From the IMG/VR virus record IMGVR_UViG_3300038675_000183, positions 1-41,535 of that record: a stretch of 41,535 nucleotides of DNA; one strand, written 5' to 3'. The notes under the pieces are model-generated. The model searched no databases and was not told the DNA's origin. It was given only the letters and a program-made list of their open reading frames with translations. Positions 1,808 through 41,220 of this stretch are shown here, in pieces. Made by a program: the position numbers and the translations under genes. The stretch is from a virus (Duplodnaviria; Caudoviricetes). Numbering within the stretch: position 1 is the first letter of the stretch; every line of letters starts with the position of its first letter.

Positions 1808-2362
1808 TTATAGACCCTCCTCTTTTGTCCATTCGATAAAAACACGCCTGTCTTTTTTCGTCGTCTTCTTCCACCATCGCTTAAGGTGAAAAAGGGCGTC
1901 CGAGTCTTCATTGTGCTTTGGTATGGTCGGTTTTGGTTCTGGTTGTTCTGGCTTCGGTTGTTCGCCGGTTATCTCTTTGACTACCTTTGAAACATGGGCG
2001 GCTGTGACTTTCCCCTCTGGTGCGGTTTCGACGGCTTTCTGCCATGCTTCACGTTGCTGTGCGGGTTCGAGTTTTGATAGTGGGCGGGTCTGTGATTCGG
2101 TAACAGGCTTAATTGGACAATTGTCCAATTCGTTGATTACGGATGCAGAATCCATCAATTTATAAGCATACCACTTTCCAAAATCCCATCGGTCTTTGCA
2201 GTACGCCTCAAAGGTGTCATATCCGAGAACGTCCCTGTAAAGCCCCTTGTCTCTGATTTCCATCAACGCTCTGCCTACTTCATAGAACGCGCCGATGTTT
2301 CTCTGGATGACACCCTCAAGCTGTTCCAGTTCCGTCGTGTTTCTTGCTATTGCGTTTTCCAT
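1808..2362 (-). CDS. Putative DNA-binding protein (DUF3102-like helical/HTH region)
   Basis: Motif VG.AL.EIRD..LYR...GY.TFE.YC..RW; likely start ATG 2362 with GAGGTG RBS (ORF track extends to 2428 over the promoter). Confidence 0.7.
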   Translation of the reverse strand: MENAIARNTTELEQLEGVIQRNIGAFYEVGRALMEIRDKGLYRDVLGYDTFEAYCKDRWDFGKWYAYKLMDSASVINELDNCPIKPVTESQTRPLSKLEPAQQREAWQKAVETAPEGKVTAAHVSKVVKEITGEQPKPEQPEPKPTIPKHNEDSDALFHLKRWWKKTTKKDRRVFIEWTKEEGL

Positions 2363-2386
2363 GAGCACCTCTCTAAATTTTGCGAT

Positions 2387-2415
2387 ATCATAATCCCGTT
2401 CCAGTAAATAGTCAA
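2387..2415 (-). promoter_or_regulatory. Leftward sigma70-type promoter
   Basis: Minus strand TTGACT (2415-2410), 17 nt, TATGAT (2392-2387). Confidence 0.7.
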
Positions 2416-2445
2416 GAATTATTTTCATTTAATTTTATTCTTGAC
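2411..2445. promoter_or_regulatory. Inverted repeat (putative operator) covering both -35 boxes
   Basis: GTCAAGAAT (2411-2419), 17 nt, ATTCTTGAC (2437-2445). Confidence 0.5.
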
Positions 2446-7015: not shown

Positions 7016-7573
7016 ATGGTAAAGGTTGAAATAAAAACGGTGAAGATGGGGGAAATTAAGTTAAATCCTGATAATCCACGGACGATTAGCAAGAAAGACA
7101 TGGATTTATTGGTGAAATCTTTGAAGGATTTCCCTGAAATGCTGGAACTGCGGGAGATTGTTGTTGATGAGGGGATGATGATACTTGGCGGGAATATGCG
7201 CTACCTTGCGTTGCAGAAGGCAGGGGTGAAGGAGGCCACGGCAAAGGTCGTGACCGGTCTCACGCCGGCGCAGAAACGGGAGTTTATTGTTAAAGATAAC
7301 GCTTCGTTTGGTGATTGGAACATGGAAGACCTGGCGAACTCATGGGCGGACCTGCCTTTGGCTGATTGGGGCGTGAAGTTGCCGGATGATTGGATGAAGG
7401 CAGATGAACCGCCGGAAGAAAAACCAGAAAGCGTTGTCCCTGAAAAAGACCCAAATATTTTAGTACGGGTTTCTTTTCATCCTGGTATTTGGCTTGGGAA
7501 GCGCGAAGAAATTATAACGATATTGGAAAAACTAAAAAAGACATATGGTTGTGACGTGAGGATCGAAGAGTGA
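7016..7573 (+). CDS. ParB-like nuclease domain protein
   Basis: NPDNPR.I......L..SL..F....REIVVDE...ILGGNMRY.AL...G....IVKDN..FGDW. Confidence 0.85.
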   Translation: MVKVEIKTVKMGEIKLNPDNPRTISKKDMDLLVKSLKDFPEMLELREIVVDEGMMILGGNMRYLALQKAGVKEATAKVVTGLTPAQKREFIVKDNASFGDWNMEDLANSWADLPLADWGVKLPDDWMKADEPPEEKPESVVPEKDPNILVRVSFHPGIWLGKREEIITILEKLKKTYGCDVRIEE

Positions 7574-8949
7574 AAATTGGATATTTGACATTTGGTCGCG
7601 ATGACTTTAGTTATGGGCTTGCGCTTTGCATTTCGCGCCTTAAAGATGTCGAATTATATCGCGTTACGCCAAAGACGGCCAAATATGTGGATGTTCTTCT
7701 GTTCTCGTGCTTTTGGTGGGAGCATATCTATTTACTGGCTGATTTTTTACGAAAAGCCGGAATAAAAAAGAGCGAGCCGGTGCGGCCGCGCATACTTGTC
7801 GGCGGCTTCAATACATTCAACCCAGTCCCATTCCTTGCTTTTGCCGATGCTGTTATTTGCGGCGATGGCGAATCTATTATAAATCAGGTGGTCAATGGTG
7901 ATTACTCTGCTGATAGCGTTTTAACCGATGATAAAAAATCCGTGAAATGGTGCGACGTTAATCCTCTTGTCGGATTTTGTCACGACACAAATGATATTGG
8001 CCGGCTGGAAATAGCGCGTGGATGTAAAGCAAAGTGCCGTTTCTGCGCAGTATCCGCCTTAAAGCCTTACCGGGAAGTGCCACTTGATGAAGTCGAAAAG
8101 GCGCTGAAGACAACAAAAGCAAAGCGCATCGCCATGTTTTCACCTGAACCTACTTTTCACACATCAAACAATGAGCTTCAAGAACTTTGTCGCAAGTATG
8201 GGAAGACGCGGCTTGATACAGATGTCCGTCTTGACAGAATAGGCCATCGACATATGGACGGCGGCGTTTTAAGATCGGGGATTGAAGGACTTTCGGAACG
8301 GTTAAGGAAATCAGTAGGCAAGCCGTATAAAAATGATTTTATTGTGGAAGCTGTGAGAAAAGCCATTGAGCAGGGTCGCCATGGGATGTTTTTTTATCTT
8401 ATCATGGATCTGCCCGGCGAAACAGACGCGGACTTTGATGAATTTTTGACCATGCTGCACCGGATTGAAGAAATTCCAGGATGTGAAGAGCTTGTTTTGG
8501 TGCCTTCTCCGTCGGTGTTTATGCCGTCGCCTCATACAGCAATGGAATATGATATGATCCATTATGATCGGGACTATGGATCGAAATGGTATAACCTTTT
8601 CCGTGGACATGGATTAAAAGACGGCGTGAATAAACCTTGGAAATTTCAAATGGCTGAACGGGCGCGAATCTTCGGACCTTCGGCGCGGGTTTTGTCGATG
8701 GTTTCAACCCGGTCAGGAGCGGAGTTTGTCGAGATTGAAAAAGAGTTGAAAAAGAAGAAGCTAATTTCAATAAGTGCTGATGGGCGGGTATCATGTAAGG
8801 ATTTGAATGGCTTGGTAGATTCTTTACGGCCGTTCGGCGGAGTAGAAAAATATTGTGGTATCTACACCGCCGAAAAAGCTCCCTGGAAAATATTGTCTAT
8901 TTCAGATCATAAAAACGCGCCGCGAGCGGAGCGGGGAGGTTCTCTTTGA
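7570..8949 (+). CDS. Radical SAM protein with a B12-binding-like N-terminal region
   Basis: EIARGCKAKCRFC (CxxxCxxC); ILVGG....NP.PF..FADAVICGDGE; GIEGLSERLR..VGK; LPGET..D. Confidence 0.9.
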   Translation: MKIGYLTFGRDDFSYGLALCISRLKDVELYRVTPKTAKYVDVLLFSCFWWEHIYLLADFLRKAGIKKSEPVRPRILVGGFNTFNPVPFLAFADAVICGDGESIINQVVNGDYSADSVLTDDKKSVKWCDVNPLVGFCHDTNDIGRLEIARGCKAKCRFCAVSALKPYREVPLDEVEKALKTTKAKRIAMFSPEPTFHTSNNELQELCRKYGKTRLDTDVRLDRIGHRHMDGGVLRSGIEGLSERLRKSVGKPYKNDFIVEAVRKAIEQGRHGMFFYLIMDLPGETDADFDEFLTMLHRIEEIPGCEELVLVPSPSVFMPSPHTAMEYDMIHYDRDYGSKWYNLFRGHGLKDGVNKPWKFQMAERARIFGPSARVLSMVSTRSGAEFVEIEKELKKKKLISISADGRVSCKDLNGLVDSLRPFGGVEKYCGIYTAEKAPWKILSISDHKNAPRAERGGSL

Positions 8950-9878: not shown

Positions 9879-10358
9879 ATGGGAAGAAAAAAGAAACCGA
9901 TTAATTTAGTTGTTTTGGAAGGGAATCCCGGCAAGAGGAAAATTCCAGCGACACCGCAACCACCATCTGATATGCCGGACCCACCGAAACACCTTGATGC
10001 CTACGGGCTTGAAGAGTGGGACCGGATCGCTCACGGCCTGAATGTAATGGGCGTATTGTCACAGGTTGACCAATCGGCGTTGGCCGCTTATTGCATGGCT
10101 TACTCCAGGTGGAGGACGGCTGAAGAAGAAATGCAGAAAAGGGTTGCGAAGGGCGGAGCGTTGGCCGGGTTGGTTGATAAGACCGCGGCGGGGAATATCA
10201 TACAGAACTGCCTGGTTGGAATTGCGAATAAAGCCGCGGCGGACATGGTCCGGTATGCGGCGGAGTTTGGGATGACACCATCAGCGAGGGCGAGGTTGGG
10301 TGTCGGGTCCGAAAAACCAAAATCAAAATTTGAGGGATTAATTGGTGTCAAGAAGTAA
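9879..10358 (+). CDS. terS: Terminase small subunit, P27 family
   Basis: GRKKKP....LEGNPGKR; PP.HL.....EW; D..ALAAYC.AYSRW; EFGMTPSARARL. Confidence 0.92.
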   Translation: MGRKKKPINLVVLEGNPGKRKIPATPQPPSDMPDPPKHLDAYGLEEWDRIAHGLNVMGVLSQVDQSALAAYCMAYSRWRTAEEEMQKRVAKGGALAGLVDKTAAGNIIQNCLVGIANKAAADMVRYAAEFGMTPSARARLGVGSEKPKSKFEGLIGVKK

Positions 10359-11913
10359 AAGAGTTCAGAACATTATAGATTTTATTGAGAAGTTGGTTGT
10401 CCCTTCCGGCAAGGGCGAGGGTAAACCGTTTAAACTGCGTCCTTTTCAGAAGAGGTTTATTCAGGATGTTTATGGAGCGACTGATAAGGCGGGCAACAGA
10501 AGAGTGCGTCGCGCCATCCTTGCAATGGGAAGGAAAAACGGTAAATCTGTATTAATTGCCGCTTTAGCCTTAACGCATCTGGTCGGTCCCGAAGCGGTAA
10601 ACAACGGGGAAATATACTCTGCCGCTAATGACAGGGAACAGGCGGCGTTGATTTTTAAATACGGCGCGCAAATAGTCAGGGCTGATGCTGAATTATTGTC
10701 CATTATCAAAATAGTTGATTCCACAAAAACGATGGTATGTTTTGCTAATGGTTCTGTTTATCGTGCAGTGTCGGCGGAAGCAGGGACGAAATACGGCCTT
10801 AATCCGACAGTGGTTATATATGACGAATTGGCGCAAGCGAAAAACAGGGACTTGTATGATGCCCTTGATACTTCGATGGCGGCACGTTTGGAGCCGTTAT
10901 TTATTGTTATCAGTACGCAATCAAACGACCCACAACATATTTTAAGCCAACTCATTGACGACGGTTTATCAGGGAATGACCCGACAACCGTTTGCCATTT
11001 ATATGCCGTACCCGATGACGCGGAAGATGTGTTCACAGATGAAAAACTTTGGAAACTGGCGAATCCGGCTTTAGGTGATTTCCGTTCCCTTGAAGAATTG
11101 AGAACGGCGGCAAAAAGGGCAAAGCGTATGCCGACGTTTGAGGCCGCGTTTAGAAACCTGTATCTAAATCAGAGGGTTAATGCCGAAACGCCATTTATTC
11201 CCCGCGCCGAATGGACTGCCTGTCAGGGAGAATATGAAATTGAACTAAAAGAAGAAATATATTTAGGGTTGGATTTATCCGGCAAGACGGACTTGACTGC
11301 GTTAATCGGGGTAACAGCATCCGATCAGGAAAAAATTAAATGCTGGTTTTGGAAACCGCAAGACACATTACTTGAACACGAAAACAGGGATAGAGTTCCC
11401 TATTCTGTCTGGAAGAATCAAGGAATTATTAACACAACACCAGGACGGGCAATCCAATATCCATTCATAGCGGAAGAACTGGCAAGGATTAACACTGATT
11501 ATGTAATCAAGGGGATGGCCTTTGACCGATACAGAATTGATGATCTGATGAACGCGATGACCGCAATCGGACTGGATTGCTACGTTGACGGAAAAGACAA
11601 GGAACGGGCCGGTTGCCTCCGGCTGGTTCCGTGGGGTCAGGGATATGCGTCTATGACACAGGCGGTTGAGGCATTGGAAGTTTCTGTTTTAGAAAGGAAA
11701 TTAGTACACGACGGTAATCCTTGCTTAACGTGGAACATAAGCAACGCGATGATTATAGCGGACGCCGCGGGAAACCGGAAGCTGGATAAATCAAAAACGC
11801 GGTTTCGCATTGATGGAGCCGTGGCTTTGGCGATGGCAATAGGACTGAAAAGCAGGGATATGAAAGAGGAAATAGAATTTATCTACGACAAATACAGTCT
11901 TGTGAGGGGATGA
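10342..11913 (+). CDS. terL: Terminase large subunit
   Basis: Walker A GRKNGKS; YDE Walker B; ISTQ; ANPALG; GLDLS..TDLTA; RIDGAVALAMA. Confidence 0.97.
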   Translation: MVSRSKRVQNIIDFIEKLVVPSGKGEGKPFKLRPFQKRFIQDVYGATDKAGNRRVRRAILAMGRKNGKSVLIAALALTHLVGPEAVNNGEIYSAANDREQAALIFKYGAQIVRADAELLSIIKIVDSTKTMVCFANGSVYRAVSAEAGTKYGLNPTVVIYDELAQAKNRDLYDALDTSMAARLEPLFIVISTQSNDPQHILSQLIDDGLSGNDPTTVCHLYAVPDDAEDVFTDEKLWKLANPALGDFRSLEELRTAAKRAKRMPTFEAAFRNLYLNQRVNAETPFIPRAEWTACQGEYEIELKEEIYLGLDLSGKTDLTALIGVTASDQEKIKCWFWKPQDTLLEHENRDRVPYSVWKNQGIINTTPGRAIQYPFIAEELARINTDYVIKGMAFDRYRIDDLMNAMTAIGLDCYVDGKDKERAGCLRLVPWGQGYASMTQAVEALEVSVLERKLVHDGNPCLTWNISNAMIIADAAGNRKLDKSKTRFRIDGAVALAMAIGLKSRDMKEEIEFIYDKYSLVRG

Positions 11914-12117: not shown

Positions 12118-13002
12118 ATGGAAAACACAGAGATTGTGAAGCGGTTGAGTTATTTAGTGAAGAGTTACGAACGGATAACGAAAGTTATCGCACAGACGAG
12201 GCAGACAGGATTAGCATATGGGACACTTGTTGAAGATGCGGATGATGATGTTGATTTGATCTTGAAAGGCAATGGTAAGGAAGTCGGGATGCTCACCGTC
12301 AAAGGCCGGTTAAGCCGTGAGATCGAAAAGGAATTACCGCAATGGGATGTATGGGAAAGGTGGTTAAAGTATGTGCCGGGGATCGGTCCGGCAATCGGAG
12401 CGAAATTAATCCTCATGTTTAATTACAGGTCGGTTGCTGTTTGTAAGGATTGTGGTGGGATGCTAGAAAAAGAGGATAAGCAACTTATTTGTCAAGAGTG
12501 CGGAAAGACAGCCAAAGACGGATTGCTGAAATATCGGATTGAACGCCGTGATTACGCGACTATTTCAAAGTGGTGGGCATATATGGGAAGGCACACGGTT
12601 GATGGTATTATGCCGAAACGGAAATCGGGAGAATTAGCGAACTGGTCAACGGAGGGCCGTACTTTGGGTTTTCACATTGGCGATCAGTTTAATCGGCAAA
12701 AAGAAAGCAATCCCTATAAGGCGTTATTGCTTGAGCATAAGGCGAAACATCAGAGGAATCATCCTGAGTGGTCAAAGGGTCATGTGCATAATGCCGCGAA
12801 GAATGAGGTTGTTAAAATATTCCTTGCCCACTTCTGGACTATATCAAGGACGTTGGAAGGCAAAGAAGTATCGGAACCGTATGCCGGTGCAATTATGGGG
12901 CATACAAATATTATAAAACCGCCGTTTTGGGAAGAGAGCGACACCACCTATGAAACCCAAGGCCGTTATGCGTCCCATTCGGCGGTTGAGATGAGAGCGT
13001 AA
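12118..13002 (+). CDS. tasA: TIGR-associated Nop-domain RNA-guided protein, TasA-like (no nuclease domain), with zinc-ribbon insertion
   Basis: Coiled-coil N-terminus; WLKYVPGIGPAIGAKL; SKWWAYMG; PKRKSGELANWS; IGDQF; HVHNAA...VKIFLAHFW..SR.LEG.....PY....MGH (IS110/Nop-like); directly followed by a 36-nt array. Confidence 0.85.
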   Translation: MENTEIVKRLSYLVKSYERITKVIAQTRQTGLAYGTLVEDADDDVDLILKGNGKEVGMLTVKGRLSREIEKELPQWDVWERWLKYVPGIGPAIGAKLILMFNYRSVAVCKDCGGMLEKEDKQLICQECGKTAKDGLLKYRIERRDYATISKWWAYMGRHTVDGIMPKRKSGELANWSTEGRTLGFHIGDQFNRQKESNPYKALLLEHKAKHQRNHPEWSKGHVHNAAKNEVVKIFLAHFWTISRTLEGKEVSEPYAGAIMGHTNIIKPPFWEESDTTYETQGRYASHSAVEMRA

Positions 13003-13152
13003 GAGATGAGCTATGGACAGAGTGAAACCCATTAGAGTCTTGCGAGCGACTATAACCGTGAAAACCAAATCATATCTGCGAGCGATGGAATTGCTGAACC
13101 CCAATTTACTAATGCGAGCGACTTGAGCATTGAAACCCATTGAATATATGCG
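12937..13152 (+). ncRNA. TIGR array 1: six 36-nt units (one degenerate)
   Basis: Units start at 12937, 12973 (degenerate), 13009, 13045, 13081, 13117; consensus AGCGA-N9-TGAAACCCA-N9-TGCG. Confidence 0.9.
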
Positions 13153-13179
13153 ACAAAATTAAAAAAGGAGAATACCGAG

Positions 13180-13800
13180 ATGGAAAAGAACAAGTTTGAC
13201 AAGTTTTCATTAACCGAATTGGAAACAAAAGTCGAGGAGAGTGCCAAAGATGCGCGGGATGCGCAGAAGATGCAGATTGAGGTTTTGTTTTATCTCAAGG
13301 TGTCTGGGCGTTACAAAGAAAACAAACGGTATGAAAAAGCAACATTCTACAATTACATTGATGACAGATTTAATATCAGAAAAAACACCTATATGGAAAT
13401 GCAGATGGCGTTTATTAAGTTTCCGAAAGAGACAAGGGAGTTTGGTGTTGGTGTTGTATCGCGGGTAATGCGTGATTGCGGTGCGGTTAAGGTTAAGTCG
13501 GTTTTGGAGAAACTCAACTCCGCGCAAGAAGCAAGTAAGACAATTCTCAAGAGAGCGGAAATTGAAGGAATTATCCAGAGTAACTCCAAACCGAAACCAA
13601 TAAAAAAAGAAATCACCGATTGGCGGTTGATGTATGAAACAGAATTGAGAAACCATGAAGCGACGAAAACAAAACTGCATGAGGCGTTGATGACTATTAG
13701 AGAACTGAACAACCAGATTAAAAAGCTAAAGATGACCGCGCAACGTATTACAGACATAAGGGCGATCATTGAAAAGCCGGTGCAACAGATACACGCATAG
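13180..13800 (+). CDS. Putative DNA-binding/coiled-coil protein embedded between the TIGR arrays
   Basis: AAGGAG RBS; L..LK..G.YK....Y...TF..Y..DRF motif resembling ORF 1808-2362; C-terminal coiled coil. Confidence 0.8.
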   Translation: MEKNKFDKFSLTELETKVEESAKDARDAQKMQIEVLFYLKVSGRYKENKRYEKATFYNYIDDRFNIRKNTYMEMQMAFIKFPKETREFGVGVVSRVMRDCGAVKVKSVLEKLNSAQEASKTILKRAEIEGIIQSNSKPKPIKKEITDWRLMYETELRNHEATKTKLHEALMTIRELNNQIKKLKMTAQRITDIRAIIEKPVQQIHA

Positions 13801-13806
13801 GATGTA

Positions 13807-13950
13807 AGCCTTAAGTTTTGTGAAGCCCAAAAAACGAGTGCGAGCGACTAACCATTTGGAACCCACTTGCTTAGTGCGAGCGACGCTTCACATGAAATCC
13901 ACTCCAGCTTTGCGAACGAAATAAACAATGAACCCCAATCCGCGTTTGTG
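13807..13950 (+). ncRNA. TIGR array 2: four 36-nt units
   Basis: Units start at 13807, 13843, 13879, 13915; same edge/loop repeats as array 1. Confidence 0.9.
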
Positions 13951-13955
13951 TCCAC

Positions 13956-13979
13956 AAGGGGAGGTTTTTGCCTCCCCTT
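13956..13979 (+). terminator. Hairpin closing the TIGR locus
   Basis: AAGGGGAGG-TTTTTG-CCTCCCCTT perfect 9-bp stem, followed by AT-rich sequence. Confidence 0.7.
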
Positions 13980-14314: not shown

Positions 14315-15550
14315 ATGGGGATTTTTTCCGGCATCCGTCCCAAAGCCATGACAAGCGACGCATTAGAGCGTCTTATCATTGAAACATTCGGAAGCACTAA
14401 AACCGCCTCCGGCCAGAACATTAATTCAACCACGGCCATGCAAGCGATGGCCGTTCATTCATGTGTGAAGATCAAGGCTGATTCAATCGCGCAGTTACCA
14501 TGCCACTTATACATCGAAAAAGGAAACACAAAAGACAAGGCAAAAGAGTTGAGGCTTTACCGATTACTACACAGGCAACCGAATGAATGGATGACCGCGC
14601 CTGAGTTTTGGGGAATGTGTTCTGCTTGCTTGGATTTGCGGGGAAACTTTTTCGCGTTAAAAACCGGCCTGCCGGGGCGTGAAGTTCAAGAGCTTATTCC
14701 AATACCGATAGGACGGGTTGAGGAAGTTATTCAAGAGGCCAACTACGGCCTTTTCTATAAGATCAGGCGTCCCGACGGATCAGGAACCGATATAGTTCCC
14801 GGCAACCGAATTTTTCACGTTCGCGGCCTTGTTCTTGATGGTTTTACCGGATTGAACCCTATCGAATACGCAAGGGAGAGCATCGGGCTGGATCAGGCTC
14901 TTGCCAAGCATGGGGCCAAGTTATTCAGTCATGGAACCATGATCGGCGGCGTTTTGCAAATGCCAGGATCATTCAAAGACCGGACAATGGCGCAGAAATT
15001 CCTTGATGATTTCAACGACCATTATTCATCTGTGGAGAACGCACACAAGACGGCACTGCTTGAGCAGGGTGTCACTTGGCAGAAAATGGCGATGACATCT
15101 GTTGATTCGCAATTCCTTGAGGCCCGCAACTTCCAGAAAAAAGAAATCGTGGACCTGTTCTTTGGTTTGCCGCTGTCCATGCTCCAATCCGGGGATAAAG
15201 TGGCAACGTATGCCAGTGCGGACGCATTTGACCTTGAATATGTCAAATATGCGCTGACTCCGCGCCTTGTTAATATCGAAATGGCAATTTATCGGGATTT
15301 ACTCACTGAAGAACAAAAACAAAACTATTTTGCGAAATTTTCAACCGGCGGATTGCTGCGCGGCGATACAGCGGCGCGGACCCTTTATTATCAGGGCATG
15401 ATCAACATTGAGGCAATGTCACCGAATGAGGTCCGTGAGCTGGAAGACATGAACCCCTATGAAGGCGGGGATGAATACCGGACCCGGACGTCAACGGTCA
15501 GAGAACGGAAAGGCGGTGATAATCAGGGAGGCGAGGACAATGAATCTTAA
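14315..15550 (+). CDS. Portal protein, HK97 family
   Basis: AV.SCV..A.SIAQLP; LL..QPN.WMT; G.NPIEYARE.IG; SQFLEAR.FQ; NEVRELEDMNP..GGD. Confidence 0.96.
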   Translation: MGIFSGIRPKAMTSDALERLIIETFGSTKTASGQNINSTTAMQAMAVHSCVKIKADSIAQLPCHLYIEKGNTKDKAKELRLYRLLHRQPNEWMTAPEFWGMCSACLDLRGNFFALKTGLPGREVQELIPIPIGRVEEVIQEANYGLFYKIRRPDGSGTDIVPGNRIFHVRGLVLDGFTGLNPIEYARESIGLDQALAKHGAKLFSHGTMIGGVLQMPGSFKDRTMAQKFLDDFNDHYSSVENAHKTALLEQGVTWQKMAMTSVDSQFLEARNFQKKEIVDLFFGLPLSMLQSGDKVATYASADAFDLEYVKYALTPRLVNIEMAIYRDLLTEEQKQNYFAKFSTGGLLRGDTAARTLYYQGMINIEAMSPNEVRELEDMNPYEGGDEYRTRTSTVRERKGGDNQGGEDNES

Positions 15551-38802: not shown

Positions 38803-38941
38803 GTTTCACCTTCGTATTGTTTTTAATAACATCGTATTTGATAATGAAGCCCTTAATAAATTCTGCGGCCTCGTTTAGCTTGTGCTGTTCAGCAAGTAAA
38901 TATAGCTTCGTCATCTGCCTAGTGAGTTCGGATGGCTTCAT
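38780..38941 (-). CDS. Hypothetical protein (53 aa, not in ORF track)
   Basis: MKPSELTRQMTKLYLLAEQHKLNEAAEFIKG...; ATGA overlap with upstream gene. Confidence 0.45.
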   Translation of the reverse strand: MKPSELTRQMTKLYLLAEQHKLNEAAEFIKGFIIKYDVIKNNTKVKRGTSKNK

Positions 38942-39948
38942 TTAACAACCTCATTGCAGAGATATTCGTAAACGCCCTTCTGGATGTCGCCCGTTGACTC
39001 ACTGCCGATATTAGCCTTGAGAAACTCTTTTATCTGCTCGTCGGATTTGCCACTTCCCTTGGCGATTGCGTAAAATCTCTTGCGCTGATTGGCGGTAATA
39101 AGAGTGGGTGAGGGCGTATCAGGAAGCGGCTCCTGGCTCTCGACGTTGCCCTGTGGCGTGACTTCTTCCGCCGGGGGCATGGATGGTTCGGGTTCGGGCA
39201 AGGCATCGACAGGGACGTCGTCAATGACGTCAACCGGATCAAGTTCAGGGTTGTCGTCCTTCGGCGGCGGCAGCGCGATATGCGACGAGTATTCCAGGAT
39301 CCGCACGTTGTCCGTCCGCAACTGGTTGATCGTGTCGATGTTGGCGTCCATGATCAGCTTCAGCGTAAAATGCGACTGCTTCTTGTCGTCATGGTGCGTT
39401 TCTGTCTTGTCCCTGCGCAGCTTCAGCGGGACCATGGCAACCCTGCCGACCAGGGCTTTGATGTAGTCGATGCCGGAATTGATGTCTACAATGCTGTTAA
39501 ACGATCCGGTCCTGATCTGGTAAACGCCGCCGACGTTAATCTTCGGCAGAATCACGTTCAGCGTTCCGGACTGGTGGCATTTCTTTTCGTCCAGTAGCTT
39601 GCACGGGCATTGGATCTCTTCCATTTCCTTGGTGTCCGCATTCACGCGCCATGCCTTCTCGCCGTCGCCGGTGCATTTCAAACCCTTACCGCTTCCGTAG
39701 TGCTTATACGCGCATGGAAAGACGGCATCAAGTTCGTTCAGCGGCAGCATGACATCAAGCTCCGTCGGTGTTTCGCCGTAGACCTTCTTGACTTCATCCG
39801 GGACGACAAAGTATTCTGTCTCCGCCGGATATTCCACGCCTTTGGCGGTCTTGCGCTTGATCCCCAGTCGGATAATGCCCAGGCGGGGCAGCCTGCGCTT
39901 GTCGCTCAAACCCTTAATGGTGGTCACTCTCTGTGCAAATACAGTCAT
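38938..39948 (-). CDS. Phage recombination protein (Gp3-like/recombination-directionality-factor-like family)
   Basis: RLPRLG.IRLG.K....YP....YFV; C.GDGE.A; CPC...C...G.L.V.LP...GGVYQ..T.S.NS; adjacent to the exonuclease. Confidence 0.7.
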   Translation of the reverse strand: MTVFAQRVTTIKGLSDKRRLPRLGIIRLGIKRKTAKGVEYPAETEYFVVPDEVKKVYGETPTELDVMLPLNELDAVFPCAYKHYGSGKGLKCTGDGEKAWRVNADTKEMEEIQCPCKLLDEKKCHQSGTLNVILPKINVGGVYQIRTGSFNSIVDINSGIDYIKALVGRVAMVPLKLRRDKTETHHDDKKQSHFTLKLIMDANIDTINQLRTDNVRILEYSSHIALPPPKDDNPELDPVDVIDDVPVDALPEPEPSMPPAEEVTPQGNVESQEPLPDTPSPTLITANQRKRFYAIAKGSGKSDEQIKEFLKANIGSESTGDIQKGVYEYLCNEVVK

Positions 39949-41012
39949 CGTTTTTTCTCCTTCGGTTTAGATATAAAAAGACGTTCTGACATGGACTTGA
40001 CGGTCGCCCGCTCGATCTCGGCAGGCGTCAGCAGTTCCTTGTCTATTCGGTTCGACTCAATAAGCGACAACTTGACGACATATTCACCGGCGCGGCCTTC
40101 CCGTATGCCGGCCTGCTTCAGCGTGTCCTTGATCTTGCCGGCCAGATCCTTGTATTCAGCATCAATGTCGGATTTCTGGCCTCCCAGTTCCTTGTAGTAC
40201 CGCAGCATATCCGCGACATCGTCGGGCAGCATCTCGCCAGTCTTCAGTTCGGCAAATTCCTCTTTGTATCCCGCCCAGCAGACACGGTTCCAGGCGCAGT
40301 AGTCGCACTGCCAGTCGCCCATGAAATAGTCGCGCGGCGGCAGGGTGTTGGCCTTGATGTGATCGTTTACTTTTTTGAATTTATCAAAGCACGACCGGAC
40401 AGCATCGGGGATCTCTTCGTTGATCACTTTGACTTCGCCATGGGAATTGCAGGACTGCTCGACGACCGCCAGATCAGCGTCATAGTCGTAGCGGATGATT
40501 AACTCCATATAGGCAGCGGTGTTCTTGTTCTTGATCAGCAGGATCGCCTTGTTAATGTTCGGGTTATCAGAATGCAGCCCGCGCAGGTAAATGCAGCACT
40601 GGGCAACATAGTCATAGGGGATGGTGCCGTCCCAGTATTTCATCCATGTGAAATAGTTGATTGCTTTGTGTTCGTATAGGTAATCGGTGGCAAGAAGATC
40701 CGTCACGACGCCGTCAATGTGACCTTTCAGCTTGAAGTCATATCCCATGTCCGCGGTGACTTCCATCTGCTCACTGTGAATGTGAAAAGCCGACTTGCGG
40801 ATCCAGTCTGCTGTCAGGTCTTCATGGAAACTTGAATCAGAAAAGATCATAACAGCCCTACCAGCAAGCGGCTCTTTGGGGATATTTAAACCGTGATAGA
40901 CCATTTGACGGGTGCATCGCTCTGGCCCTGCCATACTTGGGCGAGGGTAATACTTGTGATCTTCTTCCTCTTGGAACTGCCCTGCTATTTTTAAAATTAC
41001 GTCAGCTAACAT
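39945..41012 (-). CDS. Cas4-like PD-(D/E)XK exonuclease
   Basis: RPS....C.RQ; H; GHIDG; YEHKA; Q...Y; C-terminal CDYC.W...C (four-Cys Fe-S pattern); likely start ATG 41012. Confidence 0.85.
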   Translation of the reverse strand: MLADVILKIAGQFQEEEDHKYYPRPSMAGPERCTRQMVYHGLNIPKEPLAGRAVMIFSDSSFHEDLTADWIRKSAFHIHSEQMEVTADMGYDFKLKGHIDGVVTDLLATDYLYEHKAINYFTWMKYWDGTIPYDYVAQCCIYLRGLHSDNPNINKAILLIKNKNTAAYMELIIRYDYDADLAVVEQSCNSHGEVKVINEEIPDAVRSCFDKFKKVNDHIKANTLPPRDYFMGDWQCDYCAWNRVCWAGYKEEFAELKTGEMLPDDVADMLRYYKELGGQKSDIDAEYKDLAGKIKDTLKQAGIREGRAGEYVVKLSLIESNRIDKELLTPAEIERATVKSMSERLFISKPKEKKR

Positions 41013-41220
41013 TTGCTTTCCTTTCATTCTTGGAATAGGGGTTTGCATGAACGTGCGAACAAGGGAAAACGTGTTGCAAAAGTGCCGCCACGATCTCCTT
41101 CTGCTGCTTTGATTCCCACTTCCGCAAGAGGCGTTTATGTTCGTTGATTGCCTGGTCTATCGGGCGAACAAGAGGGTCACGCTTTACAAACGCTCTGCTG
41201 ATTGCGGTTAGGATGTTCAT
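41002..41220 (-). CDS. Hypothetical protein
   Basis: AAGGAG RBS; HVHANP motif; coupled. Confidence 0.6.
   Translation of the reverse strand: MNILTAISRAFVKRDPLVRPIDQAINEHKRLLRKWESKQQKEIVAALLQHVFPCSHVHANPYSKNERKANVS

Follow-up and report, generated by a model that had tools for sequence, protein, structure and literature searches.

The window analysed here is a complete 41.5-kb tailed-phage record (41,535 nucleotides) with direct terminal repeats. Between its terminase (9879-11913) and portal (14315-15550) genes lie, in order, a gene for a 60-aa helix-turn-helix (HTH) protein, tasA, TIGR array 1, the gene under study (hereafter the partner gene), TIGR array 2, a hairpin and a gene for a small membrane protein (Table 1). 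The partner gene (ORF 13180-13800, + strand) encodes a protein of 206 aa. The original prediction placed this gene, with a ribosome binding site of its own, inside a TIGR array. Its coordinates and binding site were right, and the gene does lie between array 1 and array 2, upstream of the one hairpin that they share (13956-13979), but the array is not a single interrupted one. Array 1 terminates in a 3'-truncated edge repeat, whereas the first edge repeat of array 2 is 5'-truncated, its conserved half beginning at 13807. Such truncated edge repeats are described as typical of array ends (Faure et al. 2025, PMC12045711). Since each array bears them, the gene is flanked by two complete arrays and not inserted into one. 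The hairpin (-19.6 kcal/mol, z -4.5, 0 of 200 shuffles) is the only one downstream of array 2, and a promoter scan was uninformative (6 sites against 4.8 expected). Judging from the layout, tasA, the guides and the partner gene are likely to be co-transcribed.

Table 1. Features of the TIGR cassette and one further gene, with positions in the window
Feature	Position	Strand	Basis
Unlinked phage gene, likely start 2362, not part of the TIGR system	1808..2428	-	Weak distant match to the partner N-half
tasA, 294 aa, nuclease-less Nop-domain protein	12118..13002	+	TaTasR and SpTasH profile matches, phrog_4285, zinc-ribbon and Y/H patterns
Single TIGR unit within the 3' end of tasA	12933..12977	+	18-nt register; repeat family D1
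TIGR array 1 with four 36-nt units of two spacers each; edge repeats truncated at either end	13005..13153	+	18-nt register
Ribosome binding site AAGGAG, 9 nt 5' of the partner ATG	13165..13170	+	Sequence
Partner residues 1-138, basic all-helical ParB/KorB/SopB-like predicted DNA-binding domain	13180..13593	+	AlphaFold, VIA, charge
Partner residues 139-206, a coiled coil of 50 residues behind a short linker; predicted to dimerise	13594..13800	+	Helix 148-198, heptads
TIGR array 2, again with four units; edge repeats truncated at either end	13803..13951	+	18-nt register
Terminator-like hairpin closing the cassette	13956..13979	+	Folding energy versus shuffles

Within the arrays repeats and spacers each measure 9 nt, and edge and loop repeats alternate in an 18-nt register. 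Both spacers are variable at all nine positions across 413 units from the fetched loci, on which ground an alternative reading as 10-nt repeats and 8-nt spacers was rejected. Position 3 is purine-rich in both spacers of these units (A+G 68% and 66%), most other positions being nearer even.

The identity of the 294-aa protein follows from a profile of 22 relatives that matches TaTasR (9MTY, E 1e-39) and SpTasH (E 5e-12). These matches cover only the coiled-coil and Nop parts of the two proteins, starting at residue 156 of TaTasR and at residue 64 of SpTasH, past its HNH domain, and the protein is therefore a TasA. A Pfam scan found neither RuvC nor HNH nuclease families in it, in keeping with the earlier claim of a nuclease-less Tas. 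Residues Y255 and H262 are invariant in the 22 sequences and align with SpTasH; in dual-repeat systems a Tyr/His pair has been named as the dyad responsible for processing (Xu et al. 2026, bioRxiv 10.64898/2026.09.09.750476). By its domains, arrays, hairpin and Tyr/His pair the cassette would thus be a dual-repeat TIGR-TasA system and is predicted to be RNA-guided. The Nop domain carries a CxxC..CxxC zinc-ribbon insertion at residues about 107-128 (window 12436-12501), which is found in 32 of 34 TasAs with a partner, in all four unpartnered members of the clade that were tested and in none of four distant Tas proteins tested. The unpartnered TasAs of loci L037, L043 and L091 retain the ribbon, whereas the partnered TasAs of L104 and L105 are without the pattern, and the ribbon is hence not a strict docking marker. 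The word 'zinc' does not occur in the accessible part of the 2026 diversity preprint (bioRxiv 10.64898/2026.09.09.750476), and a comparison of TasA with 50,697 annotated phage records gave two weak matches only.

The partner protein belongs to no family in Pfam or PHROG scans and has no match in the same 50,697 phage records, while a PDB sequence search returned essentially coiled-coil matches. A word-based search recovered eight relatives and an exhaustive profile search 330 clusters (50% identity); the 150 listed ones yielded 136 near-full-length sequences for alignment. The only match in a prokaryote genome, L033, was dropped as a coiled-coil artefact. The 136 members are 191-253 aa long and basic, with a median pI of 9.6, a pI above 9 in 96% and a net positive charge in 95-96% of them. 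Their Pfam matches are mostly generic coiled coils with at most seven members per family among the 25 best families, which do not include PF01672. Residues Q179, L183 and K184 of the coiled coil are conserved, and the exposed positions of the putative recognition helix are variable across the family. Neither a catalytic fold nor a nuclease or integrase motif is evident in the family, and no fused longer form was present among 7,997 scored candidates, which counts as weak evidence. In six of the ten sequence pairs tried dN/dS was 0.05-0.17, dS being saturated in the other four; with dN far below dS, the gene is shown to be under purifying selection. The partner ORF is a genuine gene from a large family without a name, and not a chance passenger.

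The full-length AlphaFold model (pLDDT 95.8) is all-helical without any beta strand. Its helices extend from residue 3 to residue 134 and are followed by a linker and a single helix at residues 148-198, in which 10 of 14 heptad a/d positions are hydrophobic. The C-half is accordingly predicted to be a coiled coil, as had been noted from the sequence, and would mediate dimerisation. Residues 1-138 folded alone give the same elements (pLDDT 94-96), namely a long helix, an HTH at about residues 56-80 and a helical bundle. In a VIA fold comparison against 48,161 PDB representatives the top match of the model was ParB (6s6h, Z 6.1, rmsd 3.6, 94 aligned residues), followed by Raf1, which is not a DNA-segregation protein (Z 5.8). 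Further down came Spo0J (1vz0, Z 5.3), KorB (1r71, Z 5.1; 8qa8, Z 4.9), P1 ParB (1zx4, Z 4.6) and SopB (3mkw, Z 4.3, and a second chain, Z 4.2). Seven ParB-family chains thus stand among the top 19 matches over residues 24-138, with sequence identities of 4-9% and Z scores of 4.2-6.1, all short of 8, below which the tool cautions that a match may reflect a common arrangement of helices. Foldseek returned no match at E<=0.001 from the PDB and viral models, its weak rows including ParB, SopB and DUF3102 proteins, and the language-model neighbours of the partner (0.90-0.92) carry PF01672/DUF3102. The joint ranking of several ParB-family domains, the basic charge and these neighbours suggest that the N-half is a ParB-type DNA-binding domain, a prediction of modest strength; the DNA-binding character first ascribed to it by eye has structural support at that same modest level.

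The resemblance does not extend to the ParB/Srx nucleotide-binding (CTPase) domain, which is absent from a model without beta strands whose helices start at residue 3. ParB_N is not among the Pfam families matched by at least two of the 136 members, and a GxxR/DGQHR-type pattern occurs in one of the 136. The idea of a ParB split over two genes was considered and rejected: ParB_N was found in 4 of 19 phage records, and in the two whose position could be established it lay several kb away from the cassette; this search was of limited sensitivity, since it missed the window's own weak ParB_N gene (7016-7573). A DndB/DGQHR gene is present in 0 of the 19 records. In the window (7016-8949) a ParB-like nuclease-domain gene adjoins a radical-SAM gene, probably as part of a DNA-modification cluster unrelated to the TIGR cassette.

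The N-half had also been likened by eye to the product of ORF 1808-2362. BLASTP between the partner and this ORF (1808-2428, - strand) does not show the likeness, but a profile-profile comparison (hhalign) reproduced its exact register over 58 columns at weak significance (probability 39%, E 3e-4). A shallower profile gave 2.9% and E 0.015, and an unrelated control gave E 0.61. The ORF family is large and common in phages without TIGR, and some of its members carry PF01672, the N-domain of a Borrelia plasmid partition protein. Proteins of the PF01672/DUF3102-like group likewise have a long helix followed by an aromatic-rich HTH in the same register; in the one case seen, L034, such a gene is not tied to the TIGR locus but lies 5 kb off on the other strand.

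For the analysis of linkage, loci were fetched with partner queries and with TasA queries, scored with both profiles and clustered at 90% identity. An adjacent tasA gene on the same strand is present in 23 of 26 partner clusters, or 23 of the 24 that can be assessed; the other two lie on contigs with less than 700 nt upstream, both showing 36-nt periodic repeats there. The exception, L054 (5977-6456), encodes a truncated partner of 160 aa without coiled coil, TasA or array. The element that carries it is small and, judged by eye, has a gene for a Clp-like protease 5' of the partner copy. When TasA is taken as the starting point, the partner gene is present in 28 of the 33 clade clusters (at least 100 bits) and in 0 of 5 distant Tas clusters, although the former count is inflated because the TasA alignment for this wider scan was built from partnered loci. 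An unbiased scan with a single TasA sequence found the partner gene in 9 of 11 loci. The TasA clusters without it comprise L037 and L043, which are well flanked downstream and negative in their partial contigs as well, L091, where a 25-bit partner remnant occupies the expected position, and L082 and L093, which have almost no upstream sequence.

The gene order itself is not fixed. The partner gene lies upstream of tasA in L088, L089 and L090, and in L035 a 1.9-kb insertion that includes a methyltransferase gene separates the two. An array lies between tasA and the partner gene in 30 of 34 loci, whereas arrays on both sides of the partner are found in just 16 of 31 tas-first loci, some contigs ending too early to tell. 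It is adjacency to tasA that is conserved, and not a position inside arrays, the feature that the original prediction had pointed out. The neighbours also vary: 63 flanking or nearby proteins (56 of 102 listed plus seven) include three terminase families, portals, a RecE-like exonuclease, HNH, methyltransferase, helicase and phosphoesterase proteins. In L030 (1440-2489) and L031 the translation suggests by eye a probable tyrosine integrase gene 3' of the partner and arrays. An integrase is encoded in 6 of 19 phage records, which argues against a general tie to integration; the complete 41.5-kb window contains no tyrosine integrase that could be found. On the - strand of the window (38938-41048) a Cas4/RecE-like PD-(D/E)XK exonuclease gene adjoins a Gp3-like recombination-directionality-factor gene, and in L002 (6244-8994) a 917-aa portal gene is interrupted by a long insert with a match of the DNA-binding/endonuclease type, which is probably an intein.

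Across 34 distinct loci the tree distances of TasA and partner are correlated (Pearson 0.77, Mantel p 0.0005), with 10 of 12 supported splits of the partner tree recovered in the TasA tree and 11 of 17 conversely. The partner diverges faster than TasA in these loci, and the linkage holds down to about 20-25% identity. Counting how often homologues sit beside TasA, the check suggested with the original prediction, therefore supports it. The counts are not independent events, since related loci share both ancestry and gene order, and for this reason the reversal of order and the changing neighbourhoods are the stronger argument. In the loci examined the partner family follows one TasA clade almost without exception, a conserved companion of nuclease-less, zinc-ribbon TasA in dozens of phage settings unrelated to one another. 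Linkage and co-divergence of this kind show co-inheritance and not binding.

The closest published counterpart is TasParB, whose gene forms a conserved operon with a nuclease-less tasA, the two being separated in some cases by arrays (Faure et al. 2025, PMC12045711). Its annotation drew on ParB-domain matches, ParB-like CTPases among them, and cites the link between ParB and sulfiredoxin; the reference list of that article also includes dnd and ParB/Srx papers. C-terminal dimerisation is predicted for TasParB, and its arrays are given 10-nt repeats (Faure et al. 2025, PMC12045711). The partner resembles TasParB in being a ParB-like protein with predicted C-terminal dimerisation, encoded in a conserved tasA operon with variable flanks and dual-repeat arrays upstream, downstream and between the genes. 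It differs in that it has neither the room nor the strands for a CTPase-like domain, and in that repeats and spacers measure 9 nt each and not 10 nt for the repeat, a contrast that depends on where the authors set the boundary. An array between the genes is moreover the rule here (30 of 34 loci) and occasional in TasParB loci. On these grounds it is rather unlikely that the partner family is TasParB under another description. The name TasParB was found in the literature only in Faure et al. 2025, a literature search for TIGR or TasA with HTH, coiled-coil or accessory proteins turned up a single review, and the motifs of this TasA clade were not found in the searched part of Table S1 of that article.

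A TasA of the stem-loop clade is able on its own to repress transcription in E. coli (Xu et al. 2026, bioRxiv 10.64898/2026.09.09.750476). The cassette resembles published TasA systems, among them the dual-repeat FpTIGR (Faure et al. 2025), in that its Nop-domain protein stands alone, its 36-nt units hold two spacers, the repeats at the array ends are truncated, a hairpin closes it and a Tyr/His pair is kept. It departs from them in the zinc-ribbon insertion and the dedicated second gene. Xu et al. tested the stem-loop TasA alone; neither 'ParB' nor 'accessory' occurs in the accessible text of that preprint. A more distant parallel is offered by plasmid RK2, where DNA-bound KorA co-operates with the ParB-family protein KorB to repress transcription (PMC11790492), that is, a sequence-specific DNA-bound protein acts together with a ParB-family protein. 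The partner is predicted to share with ParB, Spo0J, KorB and SopB an HTH and helical-bundle domain and a C-terminal dimerisation element; it differs in having no N-terminal CTPase and no ParA in 19 phage records, and its site would be chosen by RNA.

The guides themselves do not point to the phages that carry them. A search of 465 units against 1.06 Mb (18 phage records, two geometries) gave no perfect match and three cross-matches with a single mismatch. Against their own phages none of the 465 matched below two mismatches, totals being equal to those of four re-paired controls, and the guides of the window have no match better than two mismatches in the fetched loci. It is for this reason that a target on foreign DNA is proposed.

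The partner is judged a real second component of this TasA clade, probably one not described before, and the mechanism may be pictured as follows. One transcript would carry tasA, the guides and the partner gene, and TasA would cut it at the edge repeats. The TasA-tigRNA complex would then find an 18-bp site on foreign DNA, be it a rival element or the host, and a partner dimer held together by its coiled coil would be recruited at or next to the bound TasA. The two HTH heads of the dimer could grip flanking or distant DNA, and the RNA-guided block on transcription or replication would become tighter, longer-lived or wider. That the partner is a co-factor which stabilises or extends the TasA-guide block in this manner is offered tentatively as the reading that fits best, at a little less than an even chance. 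It would act as an enhancer rather than as the missing effector, and as it contains no CTPase domain it is not expected to form a sliding clamp. The original prediction of a two-component system agrees with the linkage and co-divergence; its premise that the embedded protein could supply the function because the Tas has no nuclease is weakened by the stem-loop-clade TasA that represses alone, and by L037 and L043, which have no partner, and L091, which has a remnant. An obligatory effector role is unlikely on the same grounds, with TasA able to repress alone and the partner dispensable in some lineages. Processing does not need the partner gene either, since TasA keeps its Tyr/His dyad. A more specific version, in which the zinc-ribbon TasA recruits a CTPase-less ParB-type dimer that bridges or coats DNA at the guide site, would amount to programmable looping or long-range silencing, undescribed and distinct from TasParB; it is possible but rather doubtful.

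HTH domains combined with a coiled coil are a common repressor layout. The partner might on this basis be a regulator of the cassette itself, either a dimeric HTH repressor or a TasA-binding brake, that does not act at targets. Linkage and co-divergence would fit a regulator equally well, and so would the variable recognition helix. However, neither gene was found to contain a palindrome common to the loci (no aligned codon has one in more than 4-5 of the 30), and tasA follows closely behind the terminase genes in the window and several relatives, leaving little room for a promoter of its own. A regulator of this kind is unlikely.

The presence of an array between tasA and the partner in most loci, and the speed with which arrays change, could indicate that the partner maintains or renews them by binding repeat DNA or precursor RNA or by assisting spacer exchange. 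L016, for example, encodes a partner 98.5% identical to that of the window and has only one whole unit in common with it, and one spacer A is found with three different spacers B. We know of no TIGR machinery for the maintenance or renewal of arrays. Against such a function stand the missing catalytic fold and nuclease or integrase motifs of the partner, the processing pair of TasA itself, and the regular arrays both of the partner-less L037 and L043 and of most Tas clades, which have no partner; it is improbable. No better placed is the idea of a well-preserved cargo gene: the partner would be a phage DNA-binding protein in its own right, functionally unconnected with TasA, that profits from the transcript and mobility of the cassette. 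Other small genes and methyltransferases do occur between tasA and the partner in L015 and L035, phages without TIGR commonly carry the distant look-alike family, and the truncated copy in L054 has no TasA. Yet that copy is the only TasA-free one in 24 assessable clusters, and the link outlasts reversed gene order and altered surroundings at identities as low as about 20-25%.

RNA-guided partitioning, in which TasA would mark a centromere-like site and the partner serve as a ParB/ParZ-type adaptor for ParA to stabilise a phage episome, has the predicted ParB-type fold and a precedent in the non-ParB, possibly phage-derived Borrelia centromere binder ParZ (PMC9712426) in its favour, but is highly improbable, being disfavoured by the lack of a ParA-family gene (PF13614) in 19 phage records (eight at least 90% complete; control found in 14 of 14 genomes) and of self-targets among the 465 guides at 0-1 mismatches, besides the missing CTPase domain. 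A ParA supplied by the host might stand in for the missing one.

The natural role of nuclease-less TasA is stated to be open (Faure et al. 2025, PMC12045711; Xu et al. 2026, bioRxiv 10.64898/2026.09.09.750476), and the locus provides a small, defined, two-gene test case for it. If TasA recruits the partner, TIGR systems would use separate effector subunits, and the pair (294 and 206 aa) would form a compact, PAM-free module for programmable repression or DNA bridging. A true two-protein system would parallel, on the TIGR side, the accessory effectors that belong to nuclease-dead CRISPR systems. If the partner instead regulates or renews arrays, it would bear on the control of TIGR or on its adaptation step.

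The arrays also hold traces of how spacers may change. Across three close relatives one spacer A is joined to three different spacers B. Another spacer A, with one base changed, goes with two different spacers B and keeps its variant loop repeat. The half-unit exchange sites lie at 13077-13112 and 13839-13874 in the window, at 739-774 and 1501-1536 in L016, and at 1215-1250 in L017. This pattern suggests that spacers are exchanged singly and not in pairs, a point of interest for the adaptation step of TIGR systems. In addition, the bases that follow the stop codon of tasA and that of the partner gene are alike and contain the same truncated first repeat (window 12994-13024 and 13792-13822; also L002, L009, L017 and L029), as if the array starts had been homogenised or duplicated within the locus in several lineages.
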